NCBI GenBank assembly: GCA_017481495.1 | Contig: JAFUPC010000033.1 | Span: forward strand, 22,593 to 54,592 | Length of the DNA: 32,000 nt | Origin: Clostridia bacterium | GTDB lineage: Bacteria > Bacillota > Clostridia > Oscillospirales > CAG-272 | Reading direction: 5' to 3' | In this document: positions 2,953-24,830 of the stretch, one piece after another | Position numbering within the stretch: position 1 is the first letter of the stretch | How the letters are laid out: every line of letters begins with the position of its first letter | Position numbers and translations under genes: made by a program | The notes under the pieces: model-generated | Told to the model about the DNA's origin: nothing | Database searches by the model: none | Seen by the model: only the letters and a program-made list of their open reading frames with translations

Positions 2953-2972
2953 ACCCGATACCGAACACACAA

Positions 2973-3007
2973 AAGGCGTACCGTTTCCGACAGTACGCCT
3001 TTATTTT
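2973..3007 (+). terminator. Hairpin plus T-tract between pflB and pflA (partial terminator)
   Basis: AAGGCGTAC (2973-2981) pairs with GTACGCCTT (2993-3001), a 9-bp perfect stem, followed by TTATTTT. pflA starts at 3018. Confidence 0.6.
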
Positions 3008-3017
3008 AGGAGAATTT

Positions 3018-6686: not shown

Positions 6687-6713
6687 TTTTATAATTTTGA
6701 CGGTTGGGTTTCG

Positions 6714-7081
6714 TAAAGCATATTACTTTGCGCTTTATCGCCAAATATCGCGATAATTTTGCGCAATTTCAACAGGTTTCTCCGCGATGCGCCGTCAAAC
6801 GACGGCTTTGGGGCGGTTTCGTTTTTATATTCTGACAGCTTATTTCTGGAATTTTTCTCGCATTATAACAAATGGTAAGAATTTCCACGTTCCGCGCGCA
6901 GAAGAGCCCGGATTTCTGACGGCGGACTGACGGCGATGACCCGAAATTCACGGATTTTTTGTGAGCATTTTGTGAACAAACGGGAAATTATGACGGATTT
7001 TGTTGCAAAATCTTTGATTTTATGATACAATATGAATCATAAAGAACGACGGAATACGGTTGCGCAAAGTAATATGCTTTA
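6714..7081. repeat. Perfect 20-bp inverted repeats bracketing a 328-bp AT-rich promoter-bearing segment
   Basis: The left arm is TAAAGCATATTACTTTGCGC (6714-6733). The right arm is GCGCAAAGTAATATGCTTTA (7062-7081), its exact reverse complement. The flanking bases do not extend the match. The segment sits between the divergent AP2 gene and the giant surface-protein gene. Confidence 0.9.
7003..7031 (+). promoter_or_regulatory. Promoter P1 (inside the IR-bracketed segment), pointing toward the giant gene
   Basis: TTGCAA at 7003-7008, a 17-bp spacer, then an extended -10 TGaTACAAT (TACAAT at 7026-7031). Confidence 0.55.
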
Positions 7082-7163: not shown

Positions 7164-7274
7164 TATTATGTGAAAAATAGGGATAGAATTTCTATCTGAC
7201 CCCTATGAAAACATAAATAGATGCGGACAGAACCGGAAACCGGACACCCGCAAATCCTGAAGGGAGACAATTTT

Positions 7275-10200
7275 ATGAAAGCTTTTTCAATGAAGCGGTT
7301 CACGGCTTTGATGTTGTGCTTGCTCATGCTCATCGGATGTTTGCCGGTGAATGTGTTGGCAGTAGAACCTCGCAGTTCTGAAACCGTTCTTGATGCGGCG
7401 ATTTTCTGCTCTGATGTACATGATAATCCGAGTACAGTCACTTCGGTATTTAATGGCATCAAGTCGGCAGATTCAACATTTGCCCCGACAACAGCTGCAT
7501 TTGTGGGCGATACACAGACAACTGCAAGCAGTGTCACATCTGCGGCACATGAAGTGTATTCTGACGTGCAGTGTATATATGCTTTCGGCAATCATGATGA
7601 CGAGGGCGATTATGGTATCGATGATTTCACCGGCTTGAGTTACGGTGATAGTACTACGAATTATTATATTTATACTATCAGTGAAAATTCGATGAGTAGC
7701 AGTAGTCCAGATACTTCCAATTTTACATCTACTGTCGCAGGTCTTGACAAGACCAAACCGTTATTTATTATTTCTCATATGCCTTTGCACGCACGCAGAG
7801 GTGATAATAACGGTGCGGCGGCATGGTATACTGCCATTTCTGCCGCGGCTAAACAAATGGATATTGCGTTCTTCTGGGCGCATAACCATACTTCTGAAAG
7901 TAATGTTGATACAGCCGCGTATTATATTGCAAAAAATGGTAGTGAAACTATCTCTATTCAGGGCGGTTCTACCGTAACACCCAATTTTACTTATCTGAAT
8001 GCAGGATACATCGATCCTCCGAATACACCTGCACGCAACAAAGTTGCTACTGCAGTTCGTATTTACGATGATAGCATCAATTATACTGTGTATAATGCGG
8101 ACGGTGAATTGAGTGGAACTTATGCGGTTAATGAGACTGTACCGCGTGCGTTTGCTTCTAGTACTGATTCCGGTTCTGGTGACACTGATAACGGCACCAC
8201 CAAGGAAGTCTACGTTCTTGTTGACACCATGACCGTCGGCGAGGATTATCTGATTGCTAACGGCAACACCGACATGGTCACTCTGCTTGGTCAGAGCAGT
8301 GGTTCCGCTGATACTACTACCGCAACGGTGGTTACTAGTGGTGACTACACTTATATCGAGAAAGCCGATTCCGGTTATGTCTGGAATGCTACGGCACATA
8401 CCAATAGCAGTTATTCCAGTTATCCCAGACTGATTAACGCAGAGACTTATGCCATGTACGCAAGTAGCGGTTCTTTGGCATTCAGTAGCAGTTTAACTAG
8501 CACCAGCGGTGCTGTTTATACCCGTTACTGGACATATTCCGATGGTCAGCTCGCTTGTGTTTCTACGAACAGCGACAGTACCACCTATTATCTGACCTAC
8601 AGCGATGGTTACTCTATGACTTCCACCGCTACGGATGGTATCTATATCTACGAGAAGCAGACCATCACGGTCAGTTCCGACGGCACTGTCTCGGGCGGCG
8701 ATTCCTCCGACGGTTCCACCGAGACTGTTGTAGGTGGTGCAACTGTTACCACCGCAGACGATGGTTCTTTCCAGAAGGTATCCACCACGGAAAAGAAGAC
8801 TGTTTATGTGCTGACCAGCAGCATTACTTCCGGTACTTCTTATCTGATTGTCAACGGTAATTCCGCAGGAAGTTATTATGCTCTGGCGAATAACAGCGGT
8901 TCGGTTGCGGCAACCGGTGTAACTGTCAAGACAGACAGCACAATCGGTGCATATATCGAACTTACGGATGCGACCGATGATGAGCTTTGGACTGCGAGCG
9001 GTAGCAGTTCTACTTCTCTGAAAAATGGTAGTTACTACCTGACTTATAGTGGTTCTAACAGTAACTATTCTTTGGACTTGTCAACAAGTTCTACGAGTTC
9101 TACGAGTTGGACATATTCGTCCAATAGATTATCTATTGTTCCTAAAAGAACTACTTATTATCTTGTTTATGATTCTGGTTGGGACATGAGTAGTTCTTCT
9201 GATAATATCTACTTCTACGTTCCCACTGAAGTTGACGGTAGTGTTACCTACTCCGTCACCGCCTCCGACATCGAACACATCTACGATTCGGACGATTCTA
9301 CCGCGGAAACGGAAACCATCGTAGCAAAAACAAATGCTTCTGAAGGCACCTACTCCTATGCAATCGTCTCCGACGAATCCGGTATCATTGACACCGCAAA
9401 TACGACCGGTTCCACCCTCTCATTCACAGGCGAAGCCGGTACTGCGACTGTCCGTGTATACTACACGTTTATTACGAAAGATGGTACAGAGTACAAGATC
9501 TGGGACACCATCACCGTCACCGCAACGTATCCTTATTACACTGTTGACATCACACATAATTCCGATGGTACGGGGGCAGAGGGAACGACTTCCGATTATG
9601 TTTCCGTTACCGATACGATTTCGATCAAAGGCGTGGAAGCAAATGACACATATGACCTTTGGGCGAAAGTATATCTCAACGGTGAAACAGAACAAACTGT
9701 TGAAAGCAGTAAACTGACTTGGAATTCCAATAATACCGCTGTTGCAAAAGTCGATTCTGACGGTAATGTCACATTCATCGGAGAAGAGGGAACTGTACAG
9801 ATTACCGTTTATTACGCATATACCAACAATGAGGGCGAGACCGTACAGGCAACAGACGTTGTGACGTTCTCCGTATCCAAAAATAATTACGTTATCCCCT
9901 CCGACGGCACCAACGACTTCCCCGAATACCCCAACGAAGGCGCAATCCGTTTCGACAAAACTGCGACCGCGGTCGGTAACTTCTCCGAAACCGGTATCGC
10001 ACAGGTTGAACTGTCTATGACGGGTGTACCGTATTCGACCGGTTCCGAGATTGACGTTGTCATTATGCTGGATATGACAGGTTCCATGTCCAGTACAGCA
10101 ATGACTGCGGCAGAAGAATCCGCAATTGCTTTTGCAGAGCAGATCGTCAAAAACGAGGACGGCACTTACAATAACAATCGTATTGCTGTTCTGGCATTCA

Positions 10201-13200
10201 ACAGTGGTAACAGTTCGCCATACACATACTGGGAGTTGGGAACTATCTCCGCTGACCAATGGGATTCTTTCTGCACCGCAGTCCGTGGTGCGAGTGATGA
10301 CCAGGAATCCGGTGGTACACCTTATGACGAAGCTCTTGAGAAGTGTCAGCAAATCCTGACTGCCGCCAAGACCGACGGCATCGGCAATGACCGCCAGCAG
10401 TTCTGCGTTTTCGTATCCGACGGTGGTCCTACATCTTATAAGTACATCACCAACTATGATGCAGTAAAAGCCGGCACTGCTACAAGTTATACCAATTCTA
10501 CTGCAAGTGCAAGCGGTGGTTCCAATCAGTCTGACAGCAACTTTGCAACCATCGCCACTTACACTCACGAGTATTACTCCACGCTGATGAAAGACGACGG
10601 CGTGACGATGTACTCTGTTCTTACCGGTTTGTCGGCAGACGATTATCCGAACTGTACGACGATTCTGCAGAACATCGCTTCTGATTCCAGTAAGGCTTAT
10701 GTAGTTGAAGATGGCAGTGATACGACTGCATTAAAAGGCGCATTTGCGAATATCGCCCTCGAAATCAAACAAGCCGCAACCAATGTTGTTGTCGAAGACA
10801 AGATTGACTCCCACTATACCGTAAACTTCGCACTCCCCACCGGTGTCACAAGTACCGAAGCTGGAATGAGCGAATTTTACATCCAGGCGGTTCAGTATAC
10901 GCTTGACAGTAACAAAGAACGTACTGGTGACCCGGCCGTTCTTGAAAACTTCACGTTCAACGCAGATGGCACGCTTAAGAGCCATACGGTTGACGGTGTA
11001 ACTTGTACAGATTGCACGCATGTAACCATCACTGATGGCATTGTAACCAAGATAGATGGTACATACTTCGATTATGAAGTAACAAGTGAAGGCGAGTTCT
11101 TCAACTGGTATGCAGATAAGCTTGATACAACCGAGCTTGCGCTCCAGTATTTCGTTTATCTTGATAAGTCTGCAGGTTATAATGTAGATGATCAGGTTGC
11201 GGCAGGTACTTACAATACCAACGAATACGCAACGATTACTTACACAAACTTCAATGGTAATAAGTGCCAGCAGGAATTCCCAGTTCCGCAGTTAACTTGG
11301 AATGGCGCACAAGTAACCTATGTGTTTTATTTAGTGAATGAAAATGGTGAGCCTGTTAACCGTGCCGGGAAAGTCGTTCCGTTTGCAGAAGCTGTATATG
11401 TAACAACTCCGTATACATATGCTGTAACTTGGAATGAACTGGAAGGACAAGAAAAAATGCTTGCACAAGATTTGTATGCAAGCGCAAAAGTACCTGACGT
11501 TTATACATTGTATGACACAAAAGCATACTATGAAATCCGAGTATATGAAACAGAATCGGTAGATAATGGAACAACAAAGAATAATGATTATTTCATTATT
11601 GAAGGTTCTACGAGCGGTTTGAAATCGTATGAAACTACCAAAGTGTTTAACACCAAGGCAGATACAAAGTACGATGATTACGGTGCATACTCTGCAACAG
11701 CAGGTACTTATACCTCCACAAAATCCAATACATCTTACGAAGCAACCGTAACTACCGACATCGACTACGCCAATACCACAGTCGCATTCGCTGTCGTCTG
11801 GAAACCCGCACTGGTCGAAGATACCGTTGTCATCGACTTCGGTCTCGATGTCGTCATTGATGTCTACACCAACGACGGTCTCGCGGCAGGTGTTACGGGT
11901 GTTATGCTGAATGCTCCGTCCAGCGTTACCATCAACAGCGGTACATATACAACCGCAGTTGGTTCCGATTCTGTCAAAAGTTCCGATGGCGTCTGGACTG
12001 CATCCAAGGAAAATCTGACCTCCGTCCGCTTCCATCTGAACAACATGGAAATCGACGAACCCGCAGTATTCTACTACGAAGCCGGTGTCAACTACTACAC
12101 CTACGATGCAAGCAACAACGCAACCCTCAACACGACGAATATGTATTCGTCCGTCACAGTCATCCCGGCTACGACGATTTATTATGAGGATGATTTTGTA
12201 GAATTAAGTTCTTATACCATTACGTATGATGAAGCAGGAAATGTGACTTCAACAACTCCTGATGAAAATACTCAGTGGACAAGCATCGGCACAACAATCA
12301 ATGATACCCAGGACGTTGACCGCCCCGGCGTTTCCCAGGCAATGAGCGCGGCATATGATGCCAACAACCTCTACGGCTACGACAGCGCATACGATTCAAT
12401 GAGTACGTATTCTATGGGTAGCGCAAAACAAGTAAAAGTTGATGCAGACCATTTTGCAAATGCGACATTTGAATTTTATGGTACTGGTTTTGATGTAATC
12501 AGTATGACGGACAAAACATCAGGTGCAATAACTGTTACAGTGACTGGTGCCGATGGAACCTCAGAATCTTATTTCGTAAATAACTATTATGGTTATGCTT
12601 ATGAAAATGGAGAATGGGTTGCTGTGGATAGTGCTTCTCCGAATGCGCTTTATCAAGTTCCTGTTATGAAAGTAAGTGGACTGACTTACGGAAAATATAC
12701 AGTTACGATAAAAGCCGCGTATAATTCGATCTTTGATAAGACGGATGATATTGAAGGAGAAAGCAACGATAACGCATATACGTTCATTCTCGATGCAATT
12801 CGTATTTATGACCCCACCGGAAATGTAAATGATATTGCAAACGATGCATACGGAAAAGATGATGAAGCATGGCCGCAGTACATTGAACTGCGTAACAACA
12901 TTATTGCTGCATCGAATTACACTGTAACAGAAAATGAAGATGGAACTGTTACTGTAAGCGGAACAGATTTGAGCGGTGCTATCTTTATTGATGGTAACAA
13001 TGAAACAACGAGTATTGCCGATTATGTAAGTTACGGTCCTAATAATGAACTGTATCTTGATGCCAAACAGTCTGTTGCGTTCAAACTCAATCCGACATAC
13101 GCTTCTAACATTGCAGATGTTCAGATTGGTTTGAAGGTTGCAAATGGTGGTTCTGTAAGTTATAAGATTTATGATTCGGATACAACAGCAGAAACCGCCA

Positions 13201-13775
13201 AGACGATAAACACCGCTACCGATATGTATTACAGTATTAAGGACATTTCGTCCGGAACTGTTGTAATTACAAATACCGGAACAACAAGTGGAATTCTTTC
13301 CATCACAAATATTAAGATTACATATACGCAGAATCCTTATGGAAAATCTGAAAGTGATCTTGATGAGCCGATGACAACAAGCCTTTACATGGATGAAGTC
13401 AGTGCAACCTCTGCATTGATGAGTCTGCGTAGTGTCAGTGTCGAAGAACCGGAAGAAGAAATTTTCGTCCCCGAATCTTTCGATGTCCGCGTTTCTTCCA
13501 AGTCTGTCAAAGTCGGTCAGAAGTTCAGCGTGATCATCACGACCTCCGCTGACGTGGAAAGTGTTTCCGTCAACGGTCAGACCGTCACCAAGTACAAGGA
13601 AAACCGGAAAACCGGTGTCCGTACCTGGTCGGTACAGATGACCGCCGCCGAAGCCGGTGACATGACGATCTCCGCTGTTGCATACGATGCCGACGGCATT
13701 GCAAGCGAAGCGGAAGAAACTGTTGTCACGGTTGCGGAAAAGAACAACAAAAACAACAAGAAAAACAAGAAGTAA
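7275..13775 (+). CDS. Giant (2,166 aa) secreted or lipoprotein-like multidomain surface protein. It comprises a metallophosphoesterase, two tandem ~150-aa modules, Big_2-like Ig domains, a vWA domain and a long beta-rich region.
   Basis: - Start: chosen at ATG 7275, with a GGGAGA SD at 7262-7267. The track start at 7221 has none.
- Signal peptide: MKAFSMKRFTALMLCLLMLIGC, with a possible lipobox LIGC or an SPase I site VLA/VEP.
- Calcineurin-like phosphoesterase motifs: SDVHD, VGDT, GNHDDE, SHMPLH, AHNH (about 7390-8050).
- Tandem modules: they begin VYVLVDTMTVGEDYLIANGN (8205-8660) and VYVLTSSITSGTSYLIVNGN (8800-9225), each with YYLTYS and IY(I/F)Y.
- Big_2-like domain: KLTWNSNNTAVAKVDSDGNVTFIGEEGTVQITV (about 9709-9810).
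- vWA domain: MIDAS-like IDVVIMLDMTGSMS and FVSDGGPT (about 10045-10770).
- C-terminus: no LPXTG and no C-terminal TM. It ends in a basic tail, EKNNKNNKKNKK. Confidence 0.85.
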   Translation: MKAFSMKRFTALMLCLLMLIGCLPVNVLAVEPRSSETVLDAAIFCSDVHDNPSTVTSVFNGIKSADSTFAPTTAAFVGDTQTTASSVTSAAHEVYSDVQCIYAFGNHDDEGDYGIDDFTGLSYGDSTTNYYIYTISENSMSSSSPDTSNFTSTVAGLDKTKPLFIISHMPLHARRGDNNGAAAWYTAISAAAKQMDIAFFWAHNHTSESNVDTAAYYIAKNGSETISIQGGSTVTPNFTYLNAGYIDPPNTPARNKVATAVRIYDDSINYTVYNADGELSGTYAVNETVPRAFASSTDSGSGDTDNGTTKEVYVLVDTMTVGEDYLIANGNTDMVTLLGQSSGSADTTTATVVTSGDYTYIEKADSGYVWNATAHTNSSYSSYPRLINAETYAMYASSGSLAFSSSLTSTSGAVYTRYWTYSDGQLACVSTNSDSTTYYLTYSDGYSMTSTATDGIYIYEKQTITVSSDGTVSGGDSSDGSTETVVGGATVTTADDGSFQKVSTTEKKTVYVLTSSITSGTSYLIVNGNSAGSYYALANNSGSVAATGVTVKTDSTIGAYIELTDATDDELWTASGSSSTSLKNGSYYLTYSGSNSNYSLDLSTSSTSSTSWTYSSNRLSIVPKRTTYYLVYDSGWDMSSSSDNIYFYVPTEVDGSVTYSVTASDIEHIYDSDDSTAETETIVAKTNASEGTYSYAIVSDESGIIDTANTTGSTLSFTGEAGTATVRVYYTFITKDGTEYKIWDTITVTATYPYYTVDITHNSDGTGAEGTTSDYVSVTDTISIKGVEANDTYDLWAKVYLNGETEQTVESSKLTWNSNNTAVAKVDSDGNVTFIGEEGTVQITVYYAYTNNEGETVQATDVVTFSVSKNNYVIPSDGTNDFPEYPNEGAIRFDKTATAVGNFSETGIAQVELSMTGVPYSTGSEIDVVIMLDMTGSMSSTAMTAAEESAIAFAEQIVKNEDGTYNNNRIAVLAFNSGNSSPYTYWELGTISADQWDSFCTAVRGASDDQESGGTPYDEALEKCQQILTAAKTDGIGNDRQQFCVFVSDGGPTSYKYITNYDAVKAGTATSYTNSTASASGGSNQSDSNFATIATYTHEYYSTLMKDDGVTMYSVLTGLSADDYPNCTTILQNIASDSSKAYVVEDGSDTTALKGAFANIALEIKQAATNVVVEDKIDSHYTVNFALPTGVTSTEAGMSEFYIQAVQYTLDSNKERTGDPAVLENFTFNADGTLKSHTVDGVTCTDCTHVTITDGIVTKIDGTYFDYEVTSEGEFFNWYADKLDTTELALQYFVYLDKSAGYNVDDQVAAGTYNTNEYATITYTNFNGNKCQQEFPVPQLTWNGAQVTYVFYLVNENGEPVNRAGKVVPFAEAVYVTTPYTYAVTWNELEGQEKMLAQDLYASAKVPDVYTLYDTKAYYEIRVYETESVDNGTTKNNDYFIIEGSTSGLKSYETTKVFNTKADTKYDDYGAYSATAGTYTSTKSNTSYEATVTTDIDYANTTVAFAVVWKPALVEDTVVIDFGLDVVIDVYTNDGLAAGVTGVMLNAPSSVTINSGTYTTAVGSDSVKSSDGVWTASKENLTSVRFHLNNMEIDEPAVFYYEAGVNYYTYDASNNATLNTTNMYSSVTVIPATTIYYEDDFVELSSYTITYDEAGNVTSTTPDENTQWTSIGTTINDTQDVDRPGVSQAMSAAYDANNLYGYDSAYDSMSTYSMGSAKQVKVDADHFANATFEFYGTGFDVISMTDKTSGAITVTVTGADGTSESYFVNNYYGYAYENGEWVAVDSASPNALYQVPVMKVSGLTYGKYTVTIKAAYNSIFDKTDDIEGESNDNAYTFILDAIRIYDPTGNVNDIANDAYGKDDEAWPQYIELRNNIIAASNYTVTENEDGTVTVSGTDLSGAIFIDGNNETTSIADYVSYGPNNELYLDAKQSVAFKLNPTYASNIADVQIGLKVANGGSVSYKIYDSDTTAETAKTINTATDMYYSIKDISSGTVVITNTGTTSGILSITNIKITYTQNPYGKSESDLDEPMTTSLYMDEVSATSALMSLRSVSVEEPEEEIFVPESFDVRVSSKSVKVGQKFSVIITTSADVESVSVNGQTVTKYKENRKTGVRTWSVQMTAAEAGDMTISAVAYDADGIASEAEETVVTVAEKNNKNNKKNKK

Positions 13776-13789
13776 GGAGGGTACTGACC

Positions 13790-14038
13790 TTGAAAAAGCT
13801 TTACACAAAGCCGGAAATCACATTTGAAGATTTTACCCTCAACACTTCTATTGCGGGAGATTGTGAAGTAAAAACACATACACCTGCTGCTGAACAATGT
13901 GGTATTGCATTCGGTGATATAAACATTTTCTTGGATGGAAATGAAGGCTGTACCACAACAATTATTGATGGATCGAAAGATTTTGATGGTCTTTGTTACC
14001 ATGTACCAACCGAGACCAACAACCTCTTCAACTCCTAA
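13790..14038 (+). CDS. 82-aa acidic 4-Cys peptide with no signal peptide; candidate RiPP precursor
   Basis: TTG start at 13790, 9 nt after a strong SD AGGAGG (13775-13780). Sequence: MKKLYTKPEITFEDFTLNTSIAGDCEVKTHTPAAEQCGIAFGDINIFLDGNEGCTTTIIDGSKDFDGLCYHVPTETNNLFNS. Cys residues are at 25, 37, 54 and 69, and the C-terminal residue is Ser. An intrinsic terminator follows immediately, then the rSAM/PqqD genes. Confidence 0.6.
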   Translation: MKKLYTKPEITFEDFTLNTSIAGDCEVKTHTPAAEQCGIAFGDINIFLDGNEGCTTTIIDGSKDFDGLCYHVPTETNNLFNS

Positions 14039-14062
14039 CCCCTAACCCCCGAAAACCGAACA

Positions 14063-14093
14063 AAGCCGCACCCATCGGCGGTGCGGCTTTTTC
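14063..14093 (+). terminator. Intrinsic terminator after the peptide gene
   Basis: GCCGCACC (14065-14072) pairs with GGTGCGGC (14080-14087), an 8-bp GC-rich stem, followed by TTTTT (14088-14092). AAA on the 5' side makes it potentially bidirectional. Confidence 0.75.
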
Positions 14094-14209
14094 ATTCTTA
14101 AATAGATATGATCGATAACCTCCATTCTGCCGAGAAATACGCGAAATATCCTTGATTTAATGGATAGTGACAGGTTATCGAACATATCTAATGCCGACAC
14201 GAGGTGCTT

Positions 14210-14983
14210 ATGAACGCAAAAACATCCAAAAAACGAAAAGGGAACCGCGCGGTGCTGTGGTGCTGTCTCGGCGCGGTTGTGGTTCTGCTGGGGCTGACCG
14301 TTTATCTGGCACTGACCTCCCGCGGGAATGTCGCTGATGCGGAACCGGACATCGACGGAACGGGCGGTACGCCTGTTGTCACGGCCTCCATTAACACGGC
14401 GGCGGAAGAAATTCCGCTTGTCACCGGGACGAAGCAAACCCTTGTCATCTGCGACATGGGCAGCTATGCGGGTCTGTACATGGAAGACGGCTCCGACGAA
14501 ATCGTCTCCGGCGTGATGATGATCATTGTCGAAAATGTCTCCGCCTCCGACCTGCAATACGCGGAAATTTCGCTCTCCTACGAAGACGGTACGACCACTG
14601 CGTTTTCCGTCTCGACCCTACCGGCGGGAGAAAAAGCGGTGCTTCTCGAAAAGAACCGTCTCTCCTATCCCGGCGATGGGGTGAAACCAACCTCCGCTCT
14701 GGTCTCGAACGTTGTTCTCTTTGACACGCCGATGACCCTGTGCGACAGCGTTCTGGAGATCATCGGCCTGGACGGCGCGCTGAACGTGCGCAACGTCTCG
14801 GACGAAGACCTTGACGGCGACATCTATATCTGCTACAAAAACGCCGCGTCGGATCTGTACTACGGCGGTATCACCTACCGCGTGAAGATCGAGGGCGGTC
14901 TTTCCGCGGGTGAGCTGCGGCAGGTCATGACGGGACATTATACCGTCTCCGGCAGCAAAATCGTCATGGTGGAATGCCGATGA
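14210..14983 (+). CDS. Bitopic membrane protein of unknown function (basic N-terminus, one TM, extracytoplasmic domain with an internal duplication)
   Basis: The start is probably ATG 14210 (the track GTG is at 14204), with GAGG at 14201-14204. The sequence begins MNAKTSKKRKGNRAVLWCCLGAVVVLLGLTVYLAL (the TM). Two similar segments follow: VENVSASDLQYAEISLSY...LPAGEKAVL and VRNVSDEDLDGDIYICYK...LSAGELRQV. The stop overlaps the next gene's start by 10 nt. Confidence 0.6.
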   Translation: MNAKTSKKRKGNRAVLWCCLGAVVVLLGLTVYLALTSRGNVADAEPDIDGTGGTPVVTASINTAAEEIPLVTGTKQTLVICDMGSYAGLYMEDGSDEIVSGVMMIIVENVSASDLQYAEISLSYEDGTTTAFSVSTLPAGEKAVLLEKNRLSYPGDGVKPTSALVSNVVLFDTPMTLCDSVLEIIGLDGALNVRNVSDEDLDGDIYICYKNAASDLYYGGITYRVKIEGGLSAGELRQVMTGHYTVSGSKIVMVECR

Positions 14984-15864
14984 CGAGAGAAACCTGTTAC
15001 CGCATCGGCGGCATTCCGGTATCCGTGCGCATGACGGGCGACGATGTTTTCACGGACGATGGCGTGCTTCTGCCGTTTGCGGAAACCGACACGCCTGCGC
15101 CCGCGCACCGGTACGACATCGTCTGCACCGACACACTGCCAAAACCGACGGGGAACTGCATTTATCATGACCCCGCAAAGCGCGTTTATCTGTCGGATGA
15201 CGGCAAAACGCAGACCCGGTATGTCGGTGCGGTCGGCGAAACCGCCGCCGGCGCATATCTGTGCATTCAGCGAAACGCAAGGGAAACACTTGTCCTTTAC
15301 AAAGGCACCCGCATCACACCGAAAACCGTGCTGTCCTCCCTGGAAGCGGAGCATCTCATCACCGTACACGCGGGGATTCTTTTGCACGCATCGTGTATCC
15401 GATACGAAAACCGCGCGATCCTGTTCACCGCCCCCTCCGGAACCGGAAAATCGACCCAGGCGGATCTCTGGAGCGCCCACCGTCACGCCGAACTCATCAA
15501 CGGCGACCGCGCGGCGGTCTTTTCCCCGGAAACCGACGGCGGCATCCGTGTCCGCGGCATTCCGTATGCCGGAAGCTCCGGTGTCGCACGGTGCGCCGAT
15601 CTGCCGCTTTGGGCGATCGTCTATCTCTCACAGGCAAAGGAAAACACCGTCCGCCGTCTCACGGGACAGGCCGCGTTCCGCGCGGTCTGGGAAGGATGCA
15701 GTGTCAATACCTGGTCAAAAGACGATGTCACCGCCGCCGCCGACACGGTGATGCGCCTCGTCTCGGGCGTTCCCGTCCTGTCGCTTGCCTGCACCAAAGA
15801 CGTCCGCGCCGTGGAAACGCTGGAACACGCGCTGGAAACCGACCGGAAAGGAGTCAACGTTTAA
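14974..15864 (+). CDS. HPr-kinase-like P-loop protein (HprK C-terminal-domain-related)
   Basis: 296 aa. The segment LLHASCIRYENRAILFTAPSGTGKSTQADLW resembles the HPr kinase/phosphorylase nucleotide-binding segment (hG..v...g.gvLi.G.SG.GKS). The gene is embedded between the membrane protein and the rSAM gene. Confidence 0.6.
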   Translation: MPMTRETCYRIGGIPVSVRMTGDDVFTDDGVLLPFAETDTPAPAHRYDIVCTDTLPKPTGNCIYHDPAKRVYLSDDGKTQTRYVGAVGETAAGAYLCIQRNARETLVLYKGTRITPKTVLSSLEAEHLITVHAGILLHASCIRYENRAILFTAPSGTGKSTQADLWSAHRHAELINGDRAAVFSPETDGGIRVRGIPYAGSSGVARCADLPLWAIVYLSQAKENTVRRLTGQAAFRAVWEGCSVNTWSKDDVTAAADTVMRLVSGVPVLSLACTKDVRAVETLEHALETDRKGVNV

Positions 15865-15869
15865 CCGAT

Positions 15870-16997
15870 ATGCAGAAAAAACAAACCGAACCCTATCTTT
15901 CCACCTATCTGCACAGCAAAGGCGCGAAGCTCGGTCTTCCCATCGGCGGGAATTTCGAGCTGACCTCCCGCTGTAACTTCCGCTGTCCGATGTGTTACGT
16001 CCACAATGCCGAAAACGACAGCGAAGCCAAACGGCGGGAGCTTTCCGCCGCAGAATGGATTTCCCTTGCCAAACAAGCGCGCGACCGCGGTATGGTCTTT
16101 GCACTGCTCACCGGCGGGGAACCGTTCGTCAGGCGCGATTTCTTTGAAATTTATCACGCCATGAAAGAAATGGGGATCCTCGTTTCCATCAATTCAAACG
16201 GGTCGCTTCTGGACGGCGAGATCCGCGAAAAGCTGTTTGAAGACCCGCCGTTCCGCGTGAATGTCTCCCTTTACGGGGGATGCGAGGAGACCTACCGTTC
16301 CATGTGCGGACAACCTGTCTTTGAAAAGGTCGTTGACAATATCCGTACTCTGAAAGAACGCGGCATTGATGTCCGGCTGAATCTGTCGATCACGCCGTAT
16401 AACTGTCATGACATCGGGAAAATCTATGAGATCGCAAGCGCGCTGAATGTCCACGTCAAGGCGACCGCCTATATGTACCCGCCCATCCGCGTAAACGGCG
16501 AACAATACGGAACCGGTGTCCGTCTGTCTCCGTCGGAAGCGGCGAAATATATGGTCTCCTGGGACAAAATGCGCTTCACAAAGGAAGAATTTCTCGCGCG
16601 TGCGGAAAATATGCGCAATCTTTGTTCTGTGAACACGCGGGAATGTGCGGCGGATATGGAGGAGGGGGTGTCCTGCCGTGCGGGTTCCTCCGCGTTCTGG
16701 ATCTGCTGGGACGGGTGGATGCTCCCCTGCGGAATGATGCCGGGGCCTGCGGTTGATCCTCTGCGCGACGGTTTCGATGCCGCGTGGGACGAATTGCGGC
16801 AGAAGACCGCGGAGATCCGGATGCCGCACGGGTGCGGAACCTGTCCGAAACGCGATGTCTGTCCCGTGTGCGCGGCGGTGTGTGTGACCGAAACCGGTGC
16901 ATTCGACCGCACGCCAGAATTTGTCTGTGCATCCACAGATGCACTTCTCACCGAAACCGAACTTGCAGCAAAGGAGATGGAACCCCATGCAGATTAA
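15870..16997 (+). CDS. Radical SAM / SPASM-domain peptide-maturase-like enzyme
   Basis: The true start is ATG 15870 (MQKKQTEPYL...). The 578-aa track ORF from 15261 overlaps the previous gene in another frame. It has the radical SAM cluster motif TSRCNFRCPMCY. The C-terminal auxiliary-cluster Cys pattern is CRAGSSAFWICWDGWMLPC ... CGTCPKRDVCPVCAAVC, which is SPASM-type (CxxCx5Cx2-3C). Confidence 0.85.
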   Translation: MQKKQTEPYLSTYLHSKGAKLGLPIGGNFELTSRCNFRCPMCYVHNAENDSEAKRRELSAAEWISLAKQARDRGMVFALLTGGEPFVRRDFFEIYHAMKEMGILVSINSNGSLLDGEIREKLFEDPPFRVNVSLYGGCEETYRSMCGQPVFEKVVDNIRTLKERGIDVRLNLSITPYNCHDIGKIYEIASALNVHVKATAYMYPPIRVNGEQYGTGVRLSPSEAAKYMVSWDKMRFTKEEFLARAENMRNLCSVNTRECAADMEEGVSCRAGSSAFWICWDGWMLPCGMMPGPAVDPLRDGFDAAWDELRQKTAEIRMPHGCGTCPKRDVCPVCAAVCVTETGAFDRTPEFVCASTDALLTETELAAKEMEPHAD

Positions 16998-17247
16998 AAA
17001 AGAATTCGTCCGGCGCGACGTCGCCGGAGAGACGATCCTCGTCCCGTTCGGAAAAACCATTTACGACGCAAACGGACTGTTCGTTTTGAGCGAACTCGGC
17101 GCCTTTTTGTGGGACAGGATCCCGGATGCGGAGAATGAGGAAACGCTGGTGCGCGCGGTACTGGAAGAATATGAGGTGGACGAAGCCACCGCACGGGCGG
17201 ATATCGCGGAATTTCTTGGAAAGCTCCGGGAGATGGGAATTCTGTGA
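16987..17247 (+). CDS. PqqD-family protein (stand-alone RiPP recognition element)
   Basis: 86 aa from ATG 16987, with an AAGGAG SD at 16971-16976. It overlaps the rSAM stop by 11 nt. Sequence: MQIKKEFVRRDVAGETILVPFGKTIYDANGLFVLSELGAFLWDRIPDAENEETLVRAVLEEYEVDEATARADIAEFLGKLREMGIL. This fits the typical PqqD pattern (..LN..g..iW..l.......l...l...Y.vd......Dv..Fl..L...gll). Confidence 0.85.
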   Translation: MQIKKEFVRRDVAGETILVPFGKTIYDANGLFVLSELGAFLWDRIPDAENEETLVRAVLEEYEVDEATARADIAEFLGKLREMGIL

Positions 17248-17325: not shown

Positions 17326-17354
17326 TTGCTATTTTTCCGGAATTGTGGTATAAT
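17326..17354 (+). promoter_or_regulatory. Promoter of the Rrf2 regulator gene
   Basis: TTGCTA at 17326-17331, a 17-bp spacer, then an extended -10 TGgTATAAT (TATAAT at 17349-17354). Confidence 0.6.
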
Positions 17355-17405
17355 ATTCAGGTCAATGATAAAAAAATCGGCAGACGGAAGGGGAGGTGCG
17401 ATATC

Positions 17406-17831
17406 ATGATGATTTCCACGAAAGGGAAGTATGCCCTGCAGACAATGGTCGATTTAGCACAGCACGGCGGCTGTGACAGCTCAGGTGACTGCGTGTCCCT
17501 GAAAGCCATTGCCGAGCGGCAGAACATTTCCATGAAATATCTGGAAGCGATCGTCGCACTGCTCAACCGCGGAGGACTCGTCAGAAGCACGCGCGGTAAG
17601 GACGGCGGATACCGTCTCGCGCGGCCTGCCGGGGAAATCACCGTTGCGGAGGTCATGGCAATGACAGAGGGGTCGCTTGCGCCCGTTTCCTGCCTGGATA
17701 CGTGTTCCGATGGACAATGTGTCCATGCCGATACCTGCCTGACCCTGCCGCTGTGGCAGAAGCTCGATGCGATGATCGACGGATACCTGTCCGGCATCAC
17801 GATACAGGATATTGTCAACCGCAATGTCTGA
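17406..17831 (+). CDS. Rrf2-family transcriptional regulator (IscR/CymR-like)
   Basis: 141 aa from ATG 17406, with a GGGGAGG SD upstream. The N-terminus MMISTKGKYALQTMVDLAQH is the Rrf2 wHTH. Cys residues in PVSCLDTCSDGQCVHADTC could ligate an Fe-S cluster. The gene lies directly upstream of nifS-nifU. Confidence 0.85.
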   Translation: MMISTKGKYALQTMVDLAQHGGCDSSGDCVSLKAIAERQNISMKYLEAIVALLNRGGLVRSTRGKDGGYRLARPAGEITVAEVMAMTEGSLAPVSCLDTCSDGQCVHADTCLTLPLWQKLDAMIDGYLSGITIQDIVNRNV

Positions 17832-17901
17832 ATGTCAACCATATTGCTTGACTGTCAACCTGACGGTTTACAATAAAATCCCCATTCAAGAATTATTTAC
17901 A

Positions 17902-17982
17902 AATTCCTACACGAAATATAGGAATTAACCCTTGACAAAATGCGCATTCTGTGGTATAATTCCTACTGTAAGAATAGGAATT
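17902..17982 (+). promoter_or_regulatory. nifS promoter flanked and overlapped by two copies of an AATTCCTA-N9-TAGGAATT operator
   Basis: Operator 1 is AATTCCTA (17902-17909) / TAGGAATT (17919-17926). The promoter is TTGACA (17932-17937), a 17-bp spacer and TGgTATAAT (TATAAT at 17955-17960). Operator 2 is AATTCCTA (17958-17965, overlapping the -10) / TAGGAATT (17975-17982); it extends to a 10-bp arm, ATAATTCCTA/TAGGAATTAT. Confidence 0.7.
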
Positions 17983-18010
17983 ATACCATTGTTCATTGGA
18001 GGTAACATCC

Positions 18011-19198
18011 ATGTTTGTATATGCAGACAACGCGGCGACGACAAAAATGAGTCCGACCGCAATCAAGGCCATGACGGAAGCGATGGAAACGGTCTGGGGC
18101 AACCCGTCCAGTCTTCACACCACCGGCCAGACGGCAAAGGAAGCACTGGAAAACGCGAGGGGGACGATCGCTTCGCTGCTCGGCGCGGAACCGCGGGAGA
18201 TCTATTTCACCTCCGGCGGCTCGGAAGCGGACAACCAGGCGATCCTTTCGGCGGCGATCAATGGTGCAAAGAAAAACAAATAGTACATCATTTCCACCGC
18301 ATTTGAACATCATGCGGTTCTCCATACGCTGAAAAAGCTGGAAAAGCAGGGTTATGAGATCGAACTTCTGGACGTGCATGAAAACGGCATCGTCACAGCG
18401 GAACAGGTCAGAGGAGCCATCCGTCCCGATACCGCGCTTGTCACTGTGATGTATGCAAACAATGAGATCGGTACCATCCAGCCCATCCGGGAAATCGGTG
18501 CAGTATGCCGCGAGATGGGTGTTCCGTTTCACACGGATGCTGTGCAGGCGGTCGGGCACATTCCGGTCAACGTCAAAGAGGACAACATTGATATGCTGTC
18601 TGTTTCCGCACACAAGTTCCACGGTCCCAAGGGCATCGGCGTTCTGTACGCAAAACGCGGCACCATCCTCTCCAACGTCATCGAAGGCGGCGCACAGGAG
18701 CGCGGCAAACGTGCGGGCACGGAAAATATGCCGGCGATCGTCGCAATGGCGGCGGCAATGAAAGAAGCCGTTGAAACGATGGATGCAGTGAACGCAAAGA
18801 TCATCCCGATGCGTGAAAAGCTGATCGAGGGTCTTGAAAAGATCCCGCACAGCAAGCTCAACGGCGACAGAAATAGCCGCGTTCCGGGTACGGTCAACTT
18901 CTGCTTTGAGGGCATTGAGGGCGAATCTCTGCTTCTGATGCTTGATGAGGAGGGCATTGAAGCATCCTCCGGTTCTGCCTGCACCTCCGGCTCTCTCGAC
19001 CCCAGCCATGTTTTGCTGGCACTCGGTATGCCGCATGAGGTCGCACACGGTTCTCTGCGTCTCTCCATCTGCGAAAACAACACCGATGAGGAGATCGACC
19101 ACATTCTGCGTGTCGTTCCCGAAGTCGTTTCTTATCTGCGCAATATGTCTCCCGTCTGGGAAGCACTCGAATCCGGCGAAAAGCCGCATCTTATCTGA
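18011..19198 (+). pseudogene. nifS: Cysteine desulfurase (NifS/IscS class V aminotransferase) interrupted by one in-frame TAG at 18281-18283
   Basis: The start is ATG 18011, with a GGAGG SD at 17998-18002. The two track ORFs (17996-18283 and 18374-19198) are in the same frame. The interval between them translates without stops as [39 protein letters not shown], which is canonical NifS sequence. Also present are [10 protein letters not shown] (PLP Lys) and SSGSACTSG (catalytic Cys). Confidence 0.8.
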
Positions 19199-19221
19199 TC
19201 TGGGAAAGGAAAATCAAAGTT

Positions 19222-19668
19222 ATGGCATTATACAGCGAAAAGGTCATGGATCACTTCAAGAATCCCCGCAACGTCGGTAAAATGGAAGATGCAGACGGTA
19301 TCGGCGAGGTCGGCAACGCAAAGTGCGGCGACATCATGAAGATGTACCTTAAAATCGAGGACGGCATCATCGTGGATGTAAAGTTCAATACGTTCGGATG
19401 CGGCAGTGCGATCGCAACATCGTCGATGGCGACCGAGATGATCAAGGGTAAGTCCGTCGATGAAGCGCTCACACTGTCCAACAAGGCGGTCGTCGAAGCA
19501 CTGGACGGTCTGCCCGCACATAAGATCCACTGTTCTGTGCTTGCGGAAGAAGCCGTCAAAGCCGCGATCAAGGATTATTACGACAAAAACGGCATCGAAT
19601 ATGACCACGAGATGTTCTGTGAGGGTGACTGCGCGCACTGTCATGAACACGATGCGGACGGTCTGTGA
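19222..19668 (+). CDS. nifU: Fe-S cluster assembly scaffold NifU/IscU
   Basis: 148 aa. MALYSEKVMDHFKNPRNVG...GNAKCGDIM...FGCGSAIATSS...HCSVLA carries the three conserved IscU Cys residues. Confidence 0.92.
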   Translation: MALYSEKVMDHFKNPRNVGKMEDADGIGEVGNAKCGDIMKMYLKIEDGIIVDVKFNTFGCGSAIATSSMATEMIKGKSVDEALTLSNKAVVEALDGLPAHKIHCSVLAEEAVKAAIKDYYDKNGIEYDHEMFCEGDCAHCHEHDADGL

Positions 19669-21434: not shown

Positions 21435-21489
21435 TTCACGATGAATGTTACATCGGGGATTCTGATGAATTTTTATAAAAAGCATAAAC

Positions 21490-21545
21490 AAACGGACTGC
21501 TGTACTGGTGCTGAAAATGCACCGCGCAAACGGCAGTCCGTTTTT
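21490..21545. terminator. Bidirectional terminator between convergent genes
   Basis: AAACGGACTGC (21490-21500) pairs with GCAGTCCGTTT (21533-21543), an 11-bp perfect stem. It encloses a second hairpin, GGTGC-tgaaaa-GCACC. T-runs are present on both strands. Confidence 0.6.
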
Positions 21546-21593
21546 CGGTTTTCCGGAAATGTGATCCGAAAAACGATTTTTACAAAAATCCGA

Positions 21594-24500
21594 TTACTTC
21601 ACAAAGAAGAACATCGGGGAGGTGAGCATACCAAGGTCGCGGACACGGTATTCGTCACACCAGCGGTCAGCACCGTAGTATACGGGTGCGGGAACACCGT
21701 CTTCGATGACGACATCGCCGATGATGCCCTTACGGTCGCCGGTACGCCAGATGCCGGGGCCTGCCCACTTGTCTTCGAGATTCGTGTTGTGAACGGCGCC
21801 GAAGCAGTTATAACGGTTGCCGTTGACATTGAACACGACTTCATGCTTTCCGGCTTTGACATCCGGAACCGTGATGGTGTACGGCTCGTAAGCGATGTGA
21901 CCGAGCGCTTCGCCGTCCATTTCCACGCAGATGACAGCACCTGCATAAGTACCTGCGCGGATGACAAGCGTGCAATCCTCCGGAACATCCACTTCGGTCT
22001 TGTAAATGAGGTTTCCGCCGTAGAACGGAAGCCCCTGCATCGTGACGGACTGGAATGCGATCGTATCGGTCGGTGCGACGACGGTCTTCACACAGCCCTC
22101 CAGACGGACGTTGAATTCACCGAGCAGATAGCACCATTCGGTATTGGTCTGACGTCCGAAAGGCATGGTGACGATCAGCTCATTGTCGCCTTTTTTGAGC
22201 GGCGGGAGCGGCACGATCTTGATGGATTCGTCGGTGAAGTAGCCGGTGATGATGGGTTCCACGCCCTCACCATTCCACTCGATGGCGAGATTTTCGGCGT
22301 TTTCGATGGCAAGCGCGATCTCATCCGTTTCGTATTCGCTGGGAATGACGAAACGCAGGGTCAGCGTGTGCTCGGGAATTTCCGGCGGGAAGACCCACGG
22401 CTGAACAATGTGTCCCTGGCGCGGCGGCATACCGTTCTTTGCACGGACGATGTTATCAAGATGCAGAATTTCGTCGGCGGGGCAGAATGTTTCCATATCG
22501 TCCCACTTATATTCCGCCCAGTCCAGCAGAACCACGTTCGGTTCGGTGCGCTCATAAGGAACCTTTGCGCGGATGGTCTGCGCGGGTGCGATCTGTTTCA
22601 GAACGGTCTTCGGCAGGGAAACCGACGGAATCGCCTGCGGCAGAAGCTTTAAGAGAATGCTGTCGGAGGAGAAAATGGTGCGTTCGATGAATGTACAGCC
22701 GTTTTCGGTGACATAGGACAACGCTTCCGTCTCGCCGTTCAGCGTGTTGTAAAGGACAGGTGTGTATTCACCCTTGACGGAAATGCGGATGTGCTGGGGC
22801 TTGGTGACAAACTTGTTGTTGTTCTGGTGGAGGTGTGCCAGGAACAGCCAGTCACAGTCGTTGTCGCGGCGCATCTGGTAGATCAGATTGGAGGTCAGCG
22901 TGCCATCGCCGTTGCGGATATCAACGATACGGTCGCTCTCCACGGCACCGAGAATCGAGTTGCGGTCGTAATTTGCGTGTTCGCAGACGTCGTAAAGCAC
23001 CTTGACCTCATCGGAGGGAATGGCATCGACGAGAGTCGGGCAGGAGCCAATGAAGACGATGTGACCGCCTGCGGCATGGTACTTTTTCAGAATTTCGAGC
23101 GTGGAACGGCGCATGGTCTCCAGCTCCGGAACGAGGATCGTGTCATAGGACATGACACCGACGGGGAGCTGACTGCCGGAAATTTCGCCGACCTGTTCGG
23201 GGAGCAGGGATTCGGAGATGAAGTCGAAGTCCACAAGACCGCCGAGCATCCATTCAATCAGGGAACGGAAGTGGTTTTCCATCTGTCCACGGACGGATTC
23301 GGTCATGAACTTCGGGCCGAAATGGAGCCAGTAGCTTTCGATGGGATGGATGATACCGACATTGACCATCGGCTTGCCGCGGGTCAGCGCGGTGTTGACA
23401 CGGGCGAAATGGTCTTCCACATAGGAATATTCCTTGTACCACGGGGACTGATGACCGATGGATGCGGGATAGTCGCGCTTCGCTTCGCCCTCCATCGAGA
23501 CCCAGTACAGATGCGGGACACGGATGGTGACACCGAGTGCCGCCTGCCAGTCGCCCTGGAACTTGTGTCCGCGGAAATCGAAATCCCAGTCGGTCACGCC
23601 GTACAGCTCGGAAAGCATACCCTCACGGCCGTACTGGTGAACGGCGGACTGCGCCTGTTTTGCGGTGGAAAGCTCGACACGGTTGCAGAGCATATCAATG
23701 CCCGGCAGACCGAACTTGCGGTAGGAGCGCATGGCTTCACCGAGTGCGGAGGTCTGGGACAAGAGGGTAGGCTCTTCCATCATGTGACCGGTCATGTCGA
23801 TGCCGTGGTCGGCGCACCACTGACCGCAGTTGTCGGCAAAGGCTTCCGTGAAGCGGTCGCAGACATGGTCGTGATAATGATACCGTGCAACGGAAATCTC
23901 TCCGCCCGGCAGATCCCAGAACAGCTCGGGCAGTTTCGGGATGAGGTCGTAGCCGTATTTGTCGGAGAACGTCTTCGGCAGGTCAGGTGTCCACGGGAGC
24001 GTGACATCGCGGGTGTCGGTCGCGTAGTTGAGGGTCTGCTTACGAGAGAACTGCGGCTCGTCCGTGAAGATGGCGGGAACGATGCTGCCGAATTCATCGC
24101 CGACGGCTTCGGCATACGCATCATGTGTGGTGTGGATGAATGTGTCGATGGCATCCTTGGACAGCGTATCGACATAGGACTGCCCGTTGTACCACGGGTC
24201 GTTGCCGGCGGTCATCATGTAGGCATACCATTTGGTGCCGGCGGCGGTTTCATCAGCTCCGATGACCTTTGCGGAAGCAAGCAGACCGTTTCCGTCAAGC
24301 ACAATGTCGTATGCGGCGATCAGATACGGCGCACCGGTCGTGAATGCGGTGTCAAAATCGACCGCATTTTCGTTTGCCTTGGTCGTGAAGCGCAGATGGC
24401 GTGCGCGCCAGCGGTAGTCCTTGGTGACAAGACCGCCTGCCGCACCGGAGGGCCAGCGGTCCTCATCATAGAGCCATGCAAGCATATCTTCTTTGCGTGC

Positions 24501-24746: not shown

Positions 24747-24830
24747 ATAATTCCTCCTTTGTTTTCCAGTGGAAAATTCCGCACGGCAGAAACTTCCGTA
24801 TAACGGAAAACAACATATTTTATCAGTATT

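Follow-up and report, generated by a model that had tools for sequence, protein, structure and literature searches.

A conserved gene set of gut Clostridia predicted to cross-link and phosphorylate a cysteine-containing mini-protein encoded beside giant secreted proteins

INTRODUCTION

The linear polyphosphorylated peptides (LPPs) are the closest characterised family to the subject of this paper, a candidate system for a peptide made by the ribosome and modified after translation (RiPP) that is encoded in 32,000 nucleotides of DNA, hereafter the window, from a Clostridia metagenome-assembled genome (GenBank assembly GCA_017481495.1, contig JAFUPC010000033.1, positions 22,593 to 54,592 of the forward strand; encoded proteins MBQ8577038-42). 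The core set of the LPPs consists of a signal peptidase I (SpI)-like peptidase, LppS, a discrete RiPP recognition element (RRE), LppB, an HprK-like kinase, LppK, a nucleoside triphosphate (NTP) transferase, LppN, and an MsbA-like pump, LppD (Popov et al., Nat Commun 2026, PMC13381572). The precursors in this family range from 35 to 200 aa and begin YxxPxVLxHQxIxFETxxS, their clusters are embedded in capsule loci, and LppK puts up to four phosphates on core Ser3, within the conserved FETxxS motif (PMC13381572).

A related chemistry is described in the literature for paeninodin-type lasso clusters, in which a kinase homologous to HprK phosphorylates the C-terminal Ser and an NTP transferase then glycosylates the phosphate. 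The SynChlorMet (SCM) cassette (TIGR04249-04251), a bioinformatic family, comprises ScmC, ScmE and ScmF together with a PqqD homologue. In the literature library searched we found no paper on SCM and no study of the present system, whether under SynChlorMet or ScmC, HPr kinase with a radical S-adenosylmethionine (rSAM) enzyme and PqqD, PF14907/HprK-related proteins, or an rSAM enzyme with a kinase and a C-terminal serine.

The window had been read, from its sequence alone, as carrying an uncharacterised RiPP-type system made up of a Cys-containing peptide, a bitopic membrane protein, an HprK-like protein, an rSAM/SPASM enzyme and a PqqD-type RRE. The core of this original prediction is upheld here: all five genes are real and lie, with their overlaps and gap, where they had been placed, although a gene upstream of them, for a giant secreted protein, had been missed. 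The gene set is conserved across genomes, as are, within the precursor family, the leader, the Cys residues and the Ser at the C-terminal end. We regard it as probable, if far from secure, that the locus is a RiPP-type system in which the RRE binds the leader, the rSAM enzyme cross-links at Cys and an ScmC-type kinase phosphorylates the C-terminal Ser of an 82-aa mini-protein.

RESULTS

Conservation of the gene set

A scan of GTDB with one genome per species, seeded with an alignment of the kinase, gave at least 592 loci, most of which belong to Oscillospiraceae, Lachnospiraceae and other Clostridia that come from the guts of humans and ruminants. Cultured carriers among them include Pseudoflavonifractor capillosus ATCC 29799 and Mediterraneibacter glycyrrhizinilyticus An427. 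Neighbourhoods were counted in the 64 loci with adequate flanks among the best 80 of these. The rSAM gene is near the kinase gene in 58 of the 64 loci and the PqqD gene in 50; a homologue of the giant protein is found in 41, the membrane protein in 39 and the peptide in 39, and the full six-gene arrangement is present in 30.

Contigs anchored on the peptide give the same picture. All five have the same order, namely the giant protein (>1000-2200 aa), the peptide, a membrane protein of 240-280 aa, PF27840 ScmC, Radical_SAM and PqqD, and every peptide-anchored contig with downstream sequence has the membrane protein, ScmC, rSAM and PqqD. A large homologue lies directly upstream of the peptide in 39/39 peptide-positive genome loci and in L001-L010. 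Adjacency is kept across Oscillospiraceae, Lachnospiraceae, Erysipelotrichaceae and Pseudoflavonifractor, even where the gene order is shuffled (L061, L063, L084, L085). Homologous cassettes thus do carry the small open reading frame (ORF) on which the original prediction hinged (5/5 peptide-anchored contigs, 39/64 kinase-anchored loci).

The precursor family

The precursor gene (13790-14038, +) encodes 82 aa from a TTG start. It had been described as a small acidic Cys-containing ORF with a strong Shine-Dalgarno sequence and a terminator of its own, and each of these features is confirmed. The composition is 13 D+E versus 5 K+R; the Shine-Dalgarno sequence, AAGGAGG, is read at 13774-13780 (+), where it overlaps the stop codon of the giant gene; and an intrinsic terminator or attenuator with an 11-bp G+C-rich hairpin stem and a T tract lies 3′ of the gene at 14062-14097 (+), its hairpin and T tract spanning 14062-14090. 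The hairpin is itself a family trait: a hairpin and T tract occur 6-21 nt past the precursor stop in 34 of 45 distinct related loci, compared with 7 of 142 control windows.

The window precursor starts with the leader MKKLYTKPEITFEDF, continues with ..IAGDC and four invariant Cys residues, and closes with the conserved tail CYHVPTETNNLFNS, which ends in Ser. In a word-indexed search the precursor had 39 homologues over its full length, with identities of 40-60%. Among 1.84 billion cluster representatives, a profile search recovered 1349 at E<=1e-3, of which 470 lie at E<=1e-10; searches of Pfam and NCBIfam with the precursor gave nothing usable. Judged by these homologues, the small ORF is a real precursor family and not a chance ORF.

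Three blocks can be distinguished in the alignment. The first is the leader, MKKxYTKPEIxFE(S/D)F (in looser form MKKxYxKPxIxFExF), in which Y5, P8 and I10 are each at least 90% conserved. It fits the [Y/W]xxPx[L/V/I] motif that is bound by discrete lasso and LPP RREs, and an LPP leader aligns to residues 1-13 of the precursor only (hhalign probability 68%). The second block contains the ..NIAGDC.. motif followed by the four invariant Cys, which are spaced by variable, indel-rich loops; exactly four Cys are present in 136 of the top 150 representatives. The third is the invariant tail CYHVPTExxNLFNS. Ser is the last residue in 142 of the 150; of the other eight, seven have a single further residue after the Ser and one has Thr at its end.

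Beside more distant cassettes are divergent relatives of 130-148 aa, whose cores are unrelated to that of the main family and which keep the leader, the first Cys (A-x-x-C) and the terminal Ser, with C-termini such as ..IFQAS, ..IANFS, ..VTEKS and ..HPNRS. The terminal Ser is the sole invariant hydroxyl residue among the precursors. Its conservation, which the original prediction overlooked, is the strongest clue to the chemistry of the system.

Some of the loci L055 (7362-8995), L084, L085 and L088 have two or three precursor genes in tandem, and the three in L055 all end ..FNSL, that is, in Ser plus one residue. Some of these same loci also have duplicated rSAM/ScmC/PqqD sets together with long (130-145 aa) divergent precursors. 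The sequence 'VPTE..' near the C-terminus was considered as a sortase signal and rejected, since no hydrophobic segment or basic tail follows it and it is not LPxTG-like.

The giant secreted protein and the membrane protein

The gene directly upstream of the precursor (7221-13775, +) encodes a giant secreted multidomain protein of 2184 aa. It carries a signal peptide and, at aa 946-1068, a VWA domain (Pfam VWA_2, 2.8e-8). Pfam gave no other domain for this protein, and a sequence search of the PDB gave nothing. In a coverage plot of 46 homologues, the N-terminal parts vary and only the C-terminal ~400 aa (about aa 1640-2040, encoded at 12138-13340, +) are common to all peptide-linked homologues. 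This module matches no Pfam or PDB family apart from a weak similarity to a protein resembling carbohydrate-binding modules (CBMs; 3nqh, E=0.007). Because a giant homologue is directly upstream in every peptide-positive locus and its C-terminal module is common to all, the functional unit begins at the giant gene (7221), upstream of 13790.

The end of the giant gene and the start of the precursor gene are 14 nt apart, and in the family this spacing is 14-16 nt or is replaced by a 4-nt overlap. So close an association raises the question of whether the mini-protein is a free natural product at all. It could instead be a cross-linked small subunit or partner of the giant protein, and the cassette would then serve to make that subunit. 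A parallel might be QhpC (of QhpC/QhpD), the gamma subunit that an rSAM enzyme cross-links in quinohemoprotein amine dehydrogenase. The strict pairing in 39/39 loci is in favour of this, as are the position of the only conserved giant-protein module, which is C-terminal and always adjoins the peptide gene, the tight spacing with a shared terminator, and a core of 60-130 aa whose conserved hydrophobic and aromatic pattern is more like that of a folded domain than of a peptide. On the other hand, the giant protein has a signal peptide, whereas the mini-protein has none; ScmC/rSAM cassettes occur without giant protein or peptide; and the LPP-type exporter and peptidase genes of related loci fit an exported peptide. 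We consider the partner role somewhat unlikely; it overlaps with the RiPP-type reading favoured above and differs from it only in the fate of the product.

The membrane protein (14204-14983, +) probably starts at ATG 14210, which is preceded by GAGG, rather than at 14204. It has a basic N-terminus, a transmembrane helix at aa 15-38, a disordered linker and an ectodomain of tandem Ig-like beta-sandwiches at aa 80-258 in an AlphaFold2 (AF2) model (pLDDT 84.5). By the positive-inside rule, we infer that the sandwiches face outwards. There are 364 homologues. Pfam and NCBIfam gave nothing usable, and the Foldseek matches were limited to generic Ig/FN3-like sandwiches at E>=1e-3, from which no function can be read.

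The ScmC-type kinase and its predicted target

The gene at 14974-15864 (+), which overlaps the membrane-protein gene by 10 nt, encodes an ScmC-type P-loop protein of the HprK/PEPCK fold, the "HprK-like" protein of the original prediction. Its best NCBIfam matches are SynChlorMet ScmC (5e-7) and HprK_rel_A (HprK-related kinase A, 8e-4), both far below cut-off; against the ScmC equivalog TIGR04249 it scores 29.3 bits compared with a cut-off of 125, with only the P-loop half covered. Its homologues carry Pfam PF27840 ScmC. The original prediction's mention of a catalogued family with HprK-related, PqqD and rSAM proteins is correct.

The fold assignment comes from an AF2 model (pLDDT 95.5), which matches PEPCK (1e-7) and the HprK/P structures 1ko7 (4e-6) and 1jb1 (8.5e-6) in Foldseek. 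HprK and the PEP carboxykinases are placed together in a single group of P-loop folds. A profile alignment to Lactobacillus casei HprK/P superposes H138, the P-loop (APSGTGKST versus GDSGVGKSE) and GD178R versus DDR. The P-loop residues S155, G158, S160 and T161 are invariant, and H138 and D178, which align to HprK MH.. and ..DDR, are invariant or nearly so. Since the fold matches that of HprK/PEPCK and the catalytic motifs, including the P-loop and the catalytic Asp, are intact and so well conserved, the protein is very probably an active phosphotransferase, and we predict it to be a peptide Ser kinase.

Two sites in the precursor can be considered as its target. By analogy with LppK, which modifies S3 within FETxxS, the kinase might phosphorylate a Ser/Thr just past the leader (..FE[SD]Fxx[ST]..), in which case the terminal Ser would be a recognition or attachment site or a target of the rSAM enzyme. 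In the precursors, FE[SD]F does have Ser/Thr after it, at positions 18-20. The position is not fixed, however (the window peptide has N18, T19 and S20), and divergent precursors, of which MKLVYESPKMYGEVFVANQYVAAC.. is an example, have no such residue but retain the Ser at their end. The terminal Ser is favoured over an LPP-like N-terminal site because it is fixed, in divergent precursors as well, and the Ser/Thr after FE[SD]F is neither; the terminal Ser is also the only invariant hydroxyl residue. We judge the post-leader site unlikely.

The rSAM enzyme and the RRE

The rSAM gene (15870-16997, +; 375 aa) begins 5 nt after the kinase gene. The protein matches Pfam Radical_SAM (1.3e-23), and the two Cys blocks that had been recognised in the sequence are both invariant across 57 homologues. 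These are C35, C39 and C42 (CX3CX2C) and seven SPASM Cys residues (C269, C287, C322, C325, C331, C334 and C353) arranged as CX12GX4C ... CX2CX5CX2C ... C. The Pfam SPASM model does not match; the SPASM assignment is made because of the Cys pattern and of full-length matches to the SPASM families AhbD, GeoRSP and ACGX. The top NCBIfam matches are a mixture of AhbD, MoaA, StsB, WgkB, ScmE and PqqE, so that the RiPP maturases StsB, WgkB and ScmE are among them, and among solved structures the sactipeptide synthase SkfB comes closest (5e-12). Scores against PqqE (72.8 versus 381 bits) and MftC (67 versus 265) are well short of the cut-offs, and the anSME match is limited to the rSAM core (2.7e-6). 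Nor is the cut-off reached for any curated cofactor or anSME family, to which the original prediction had considered that the enzyme might belong. An anti-phage defence system was rejected as an interpretation of the locus: PADLOC gave only a generic rSAM-core similarity to pVip, and the other four proteins were unmatched.

The last gene of the set (16987-17247, +), which overlaps the rSAM gene by 11 nt, encodes an 86-aa discrete PqqD-family RRE, as had been proposed from its sequence pattern. It matches Pfam PqqD at 6e-16 (59 bits against a cut-off of 23.4) and the lasso_PqqD models at 3e-8, and its sequence identity is 28-40% to the RREs of LPP and lasso clusters and 37% to an 'other RRE' in the dataset of the LPP paper. 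The identities of the RRE, the rSAM/SPASM enzyme and the HprK/PEPCK-fold protein are established.

Comparison with described systems

The locus has the generic features of a RiPP system, with a small precursor gene that encodes a conserved leader, modifying enzymes beside it and a PqqD-fold RRE. Its resemblance to the LPPs goes further. Both have a discrete PqqD-type RRE, which is accompanied here by an HprK/PEPCK-fold protein that may be the counterpart of LppK, and the precursors of both are long (35-200 aa), with leaders that start MKKxYxxPx[V/I] and include FE[T/S]. In relatives of the present family there are genes for an SipW-type peptidase, an MsbA-like exporter and an NTP transferase of PF14907, and the surroundings are capsule loci (BY-kinase/CpsB). 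The SpI-like proteins of these relatives are 28-33% identical to the SpI set of the LPP paper, although the best match is an Oscillospiraceae entry that is listed in that dataset only with an 'other RRE' and not with an LPP RRE.

There are also differences. The LPPs have no rSAM enzyme (radical SAM is mentioned 0 times in the main text and supplements of the LPP paper, PMC13381572), whereas the present family has one. The LPPs have neither a membrane Ig-like protein nor a linked giant protein. Their leader has an extra LxHQxI segment that is absent here, and the Ser after FE is not fixed in the present precursors; their C-termini are variable, in contrast to the invariant terminal Ser and four Cys of this family. 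The kinase of the present system is of the ScmC type (PF27840), with the HprK/PEPCK fold and motifs present. Finally, LPPs are found in Bacilli and the present family in Clostridia, and the window itself is without SpI, NTP transferase and intact exporter.

Paeninodin/pseudomycoidin-type lasso clusters likewise combine an HprK-fold kinase with a discrete PqqD-type RRE and a YxxPxL-type leader, and the paeninodin-type kinase acts specifically on the C-terminal Ser of its precursor, at the side chain, in line with the terminal Ser that is invariant here. Unlike lasso systems, the present one has an rSAM enzyme and a core that is 3-6 times longer. The asparagine-synthetase-like macrolactam cyclase and the B2 cysteine protease are absent from the annotated genes of the window, in agreement with the original prediction as regards the cyclase, and from the families that recur in the 80 loci.

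With SynChlorMet the system shares an ScmC-type P-loop protein, an rSAM/SPASM enzyme and PqqD, but scores are far below the cut-offs (29 versus 125 bits for ScmC; for the rSAM enzyme 75 to ScmE and 66 to ScmF, versus 400 bits each). There is one rSAM enzyme here instead of two, and a precursor family can be identified. The sactipeptide and ranthipeptide maturases (SkfB, StsB) have in common with it an rSAM enzyme with a full SPASM domain (StsB, 4e-22), an RRE-dependent leader and a Cys-containing precursor. They differ in that no equivalog cut-off is reached by the enzyme described here, the RRE is discrete and not fused, a kinase is added, and there are only four widely spaced Cys in a core of ~60 aa.

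By defining features, as far as these can be read from sequence, the system is not a member of the LPP, SynChlorMet, lasso, sacti/ranthipeptide, PQQ, mycofactocin or anSME families. The earlier statement that no known RiPP class could be named for it holds to that extent, whereas LPP can now be given as its nearest relative. On present comparisons its closest likeness is to phosphopeptide maturation of the LPP/paeninodin type, in a variant with an rSAM enzyme and an ScmC-type kinase.

Accessory and neighbouring genes

Accessory families were obtained by clustering all neighbour genes of the best 80 loci. An MsbA-like ABC exporter occurs in 21 of the 80, a PF14907 NTP transferase in 10, and a small S24/S26 peptidase that scores as an archaeal-type/SipW signal peptidase I (TIGR02228, 1.9e-9) in 8; a capsule module of CpsB, an Ig-like protein and a double BY-kinase also recurs. 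Added to the RRE and the kinase, the exporter, transferase and peptidase correspond to the LPP core set. M. glycyrrhizinilyticus has a compact complete cluster of membrane protein, PqqD, peptide, ScmC, rSAM, ABC exporter and SpI, followed by capsule genes. The statement in the original prediction that leader peptidase and exporter are lacking is correct in that none is intact in the window, but does not extend to the related loci, where both recur. A 26.7-kb sister contig has the same neighbours as the window and none of the peptidase, exporter or NTP transferase genes.

A candidate for the exporter of the window, at 5068-5625 (-), was rejected. It is an ABC gene remnant that encodes a nucleotide-binding domain only, aligns to residues ~359-570 of MsbA-like exporters of ~590 aa, and is 50% identical to the exporter found beside the ScmC/rSAM cassette of L028. 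The ORF upstream of the fragment is an unrelated Cys-rich protein. Because no transmembrane part lies upstream, the remnant looks like a decayed exporter gene. The Cys-rich ORF (5727-6686, -; 319 aa) has repeated C-x-C-x-C-G-like units and is without annotation; a 309-aa ORF on the opposite strand (5787-6716) has no Pfam match and is probably its shadow.

Directly downstream of PqqD, at 17343-19668 (+), are genes for an Rrf2-family regulator, a NifS-like cysteine desulfurase and NifU. Fe-S assembly genes thus adjoin the gene for the three-cluster rSAM enzyme, and the same neighbours are present in the sister contig L091. Farther away in the window are a pyruvate formate-lyase and its activating rSAM enzyme (721-3773, +) and a GH106 glycoside hydrolase (21594-24746, -), of which the plus-strand ORFs 21441-22652 and 22791-24803 are shadows.

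Elsewhere, the metagenome contigs L002, L004 and L009 have sortase and LytR-CpsA-Psr genes downstream of PqqD, which are below the recurrence threshold in the 80 genome loci. Where membrane-protein and ScmC genes are paired and both rSAM and PqqD are missing, the genes that follow are unrelated (an amylase gene, for example); the pair in L019 retains the peptide. Some such pairs are second copies beside a full cluster (JAZRTS L032/L037, JAZNEN L034/L041 and JBGVLZ L044/L051).

DISCUSSION

The sequence of events that we envisage is as follows. The giant and precursor genes would be cotranscribed, and the terminator would limit read-through into the four maturation genes, unless these have a promoter of their own. 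The PqqD-type RRE would bind the Y-x-K-P-x-I motif of the leader and present the precursor to the enzymes. The rSAM/SPASM enzyme would then install at least one intramolecular cross-link, most likely as Cys thioethers of the sacti- or ranthipeptide kind, starting at the universally conserved A-x-x-C Cys just past the leader and, in the main family, involving the other three Cys as well. With ATP, the ScmC-type kinase would add phosphate, perhaps more than once, to the invariant Ser at the C-terminus, on its side chain, as HprK homologues do in paeninodin-type clusters. In fuller versions of the system, an NTP transferase could decorate the phosphate, an SipW-type peptidase could remove the leader and an MsbA-like ABC pump could export the product. 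The mature product would act extracellularly, in concert with both the giant protein and the Ig-like protein tethered to the membrane, probably in the biology of the cell surface or capsule and not as a classical bacteriocin.

A number of observations weigh against this proposal. No adjacent precursor is detectable in 25 of the 64 cassettes, and membrane-ScmC pairs without rSAM or PqqD exist (L018, L019, L032, L041, L047, L051), such that the modules are separable. Codon usage changes within the locus: G+C content at third codon positions (GC3) is 0.44 for the giant gene and 0.33 for the peptide gene, versus 0.71, 0.71 and 0.65 for the membrane-protein, ScmC and rSAM genes, and a break in the same direction is seen in 28 of 36 related loci. 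The break may result from expression level, from amino-acid composition or from exchange of a giant-plus-peptide module between genomes. By sequence the kinase is only distantly related to HprK (E=0.12 versus the PDB); of the Pfam models named in the original prediction, Radical_SAM and PqqD matched, while Hpr_kinase_C, like SPASM, did not. The single best NCBIfam match of the rSAM enzyme is AhbD (heme b synthase, 1.5e-26), which is not a peptide maturase, and the enzyme reaches no curated NCBIfam family cut-off. In the LPPs, the phosphorylated Ser is core residue 3 and not the C-terminus. SpI peptidase, intact exporter and NTP transferase were not found in the window. We infer every chemical step of the maturation from sequence.

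Several of these points could be taken to mean that the giant-plus-peptide and membrane-ScmC-rSAM-PqqD operons are unrelated neighbours, or that the enzymes have the giant protein, or some other large protein, as their substrate in the manner of anSME. A terminator does separate the two gene groups, their codon usage differs, more than a third of the cassettes (25/64) lack the peptide, and the top match of the rSAM enzyme is a cofactor enzyme. However, the adjacency is kept across genera even when the gene order is shuffled, the peptide has a canonical RRE-binding leader and the cassette has an RRE, and the enzyme reaches no curated anSME or cofactor cut-off. We consider this explanation highly improbable, and retain the RiPP-type reading in which the mini-protein is the substrate of the cassette.

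As to function, a more specific idea can be put forward, which we regard as decidedly doubtful. The modified mini-protein, C-terminally phosphorylated and in some species phosphoglycosylated, might be a dedicated extracellular partner that tethers or organises the adhesin-like giant proteins of ~2000 aa on the capsule or envelope, bound by or linked to their CBM-like C-terminal module, the Ig-like membrane protein or both. If so, it would represent a previously unknown RiPP-based assembly of the Gram-positive cell surface, and not an antibiotic.

To our knowledge, very few RiPP products are known from gut Clostridia. The system, with 1349 clusters of precursors and no fewer than 592 loci among GTDB species representatives, is found chiefly in Oscillospiraceae and in other Clostridia from the guts of humans and ruminants. 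Its chemistry would unite rSAM/SPASM cross-linking with HprK-type Ser phosphorylation, two chemistries not yet seen together, on a substrate whose core of 60-130 residues lies at the border between peptide and protein. The invariant C-terminal Ser is a directly testable prediction, and P. capillosus ATCC 29799 and M. glycyrrhizinilyticus An427 are cultured carriers. The strict pairing with giant proteins, and a capsule context shared with LPPs and paeninodins, point to a role at the cell surface or in biofilms, a question that the authors of the LPP study also raise (PMC13381572). The link to giant secreted proteins, in a system that is widespread among gut Clostridia, is unexpected and strictly conserved.

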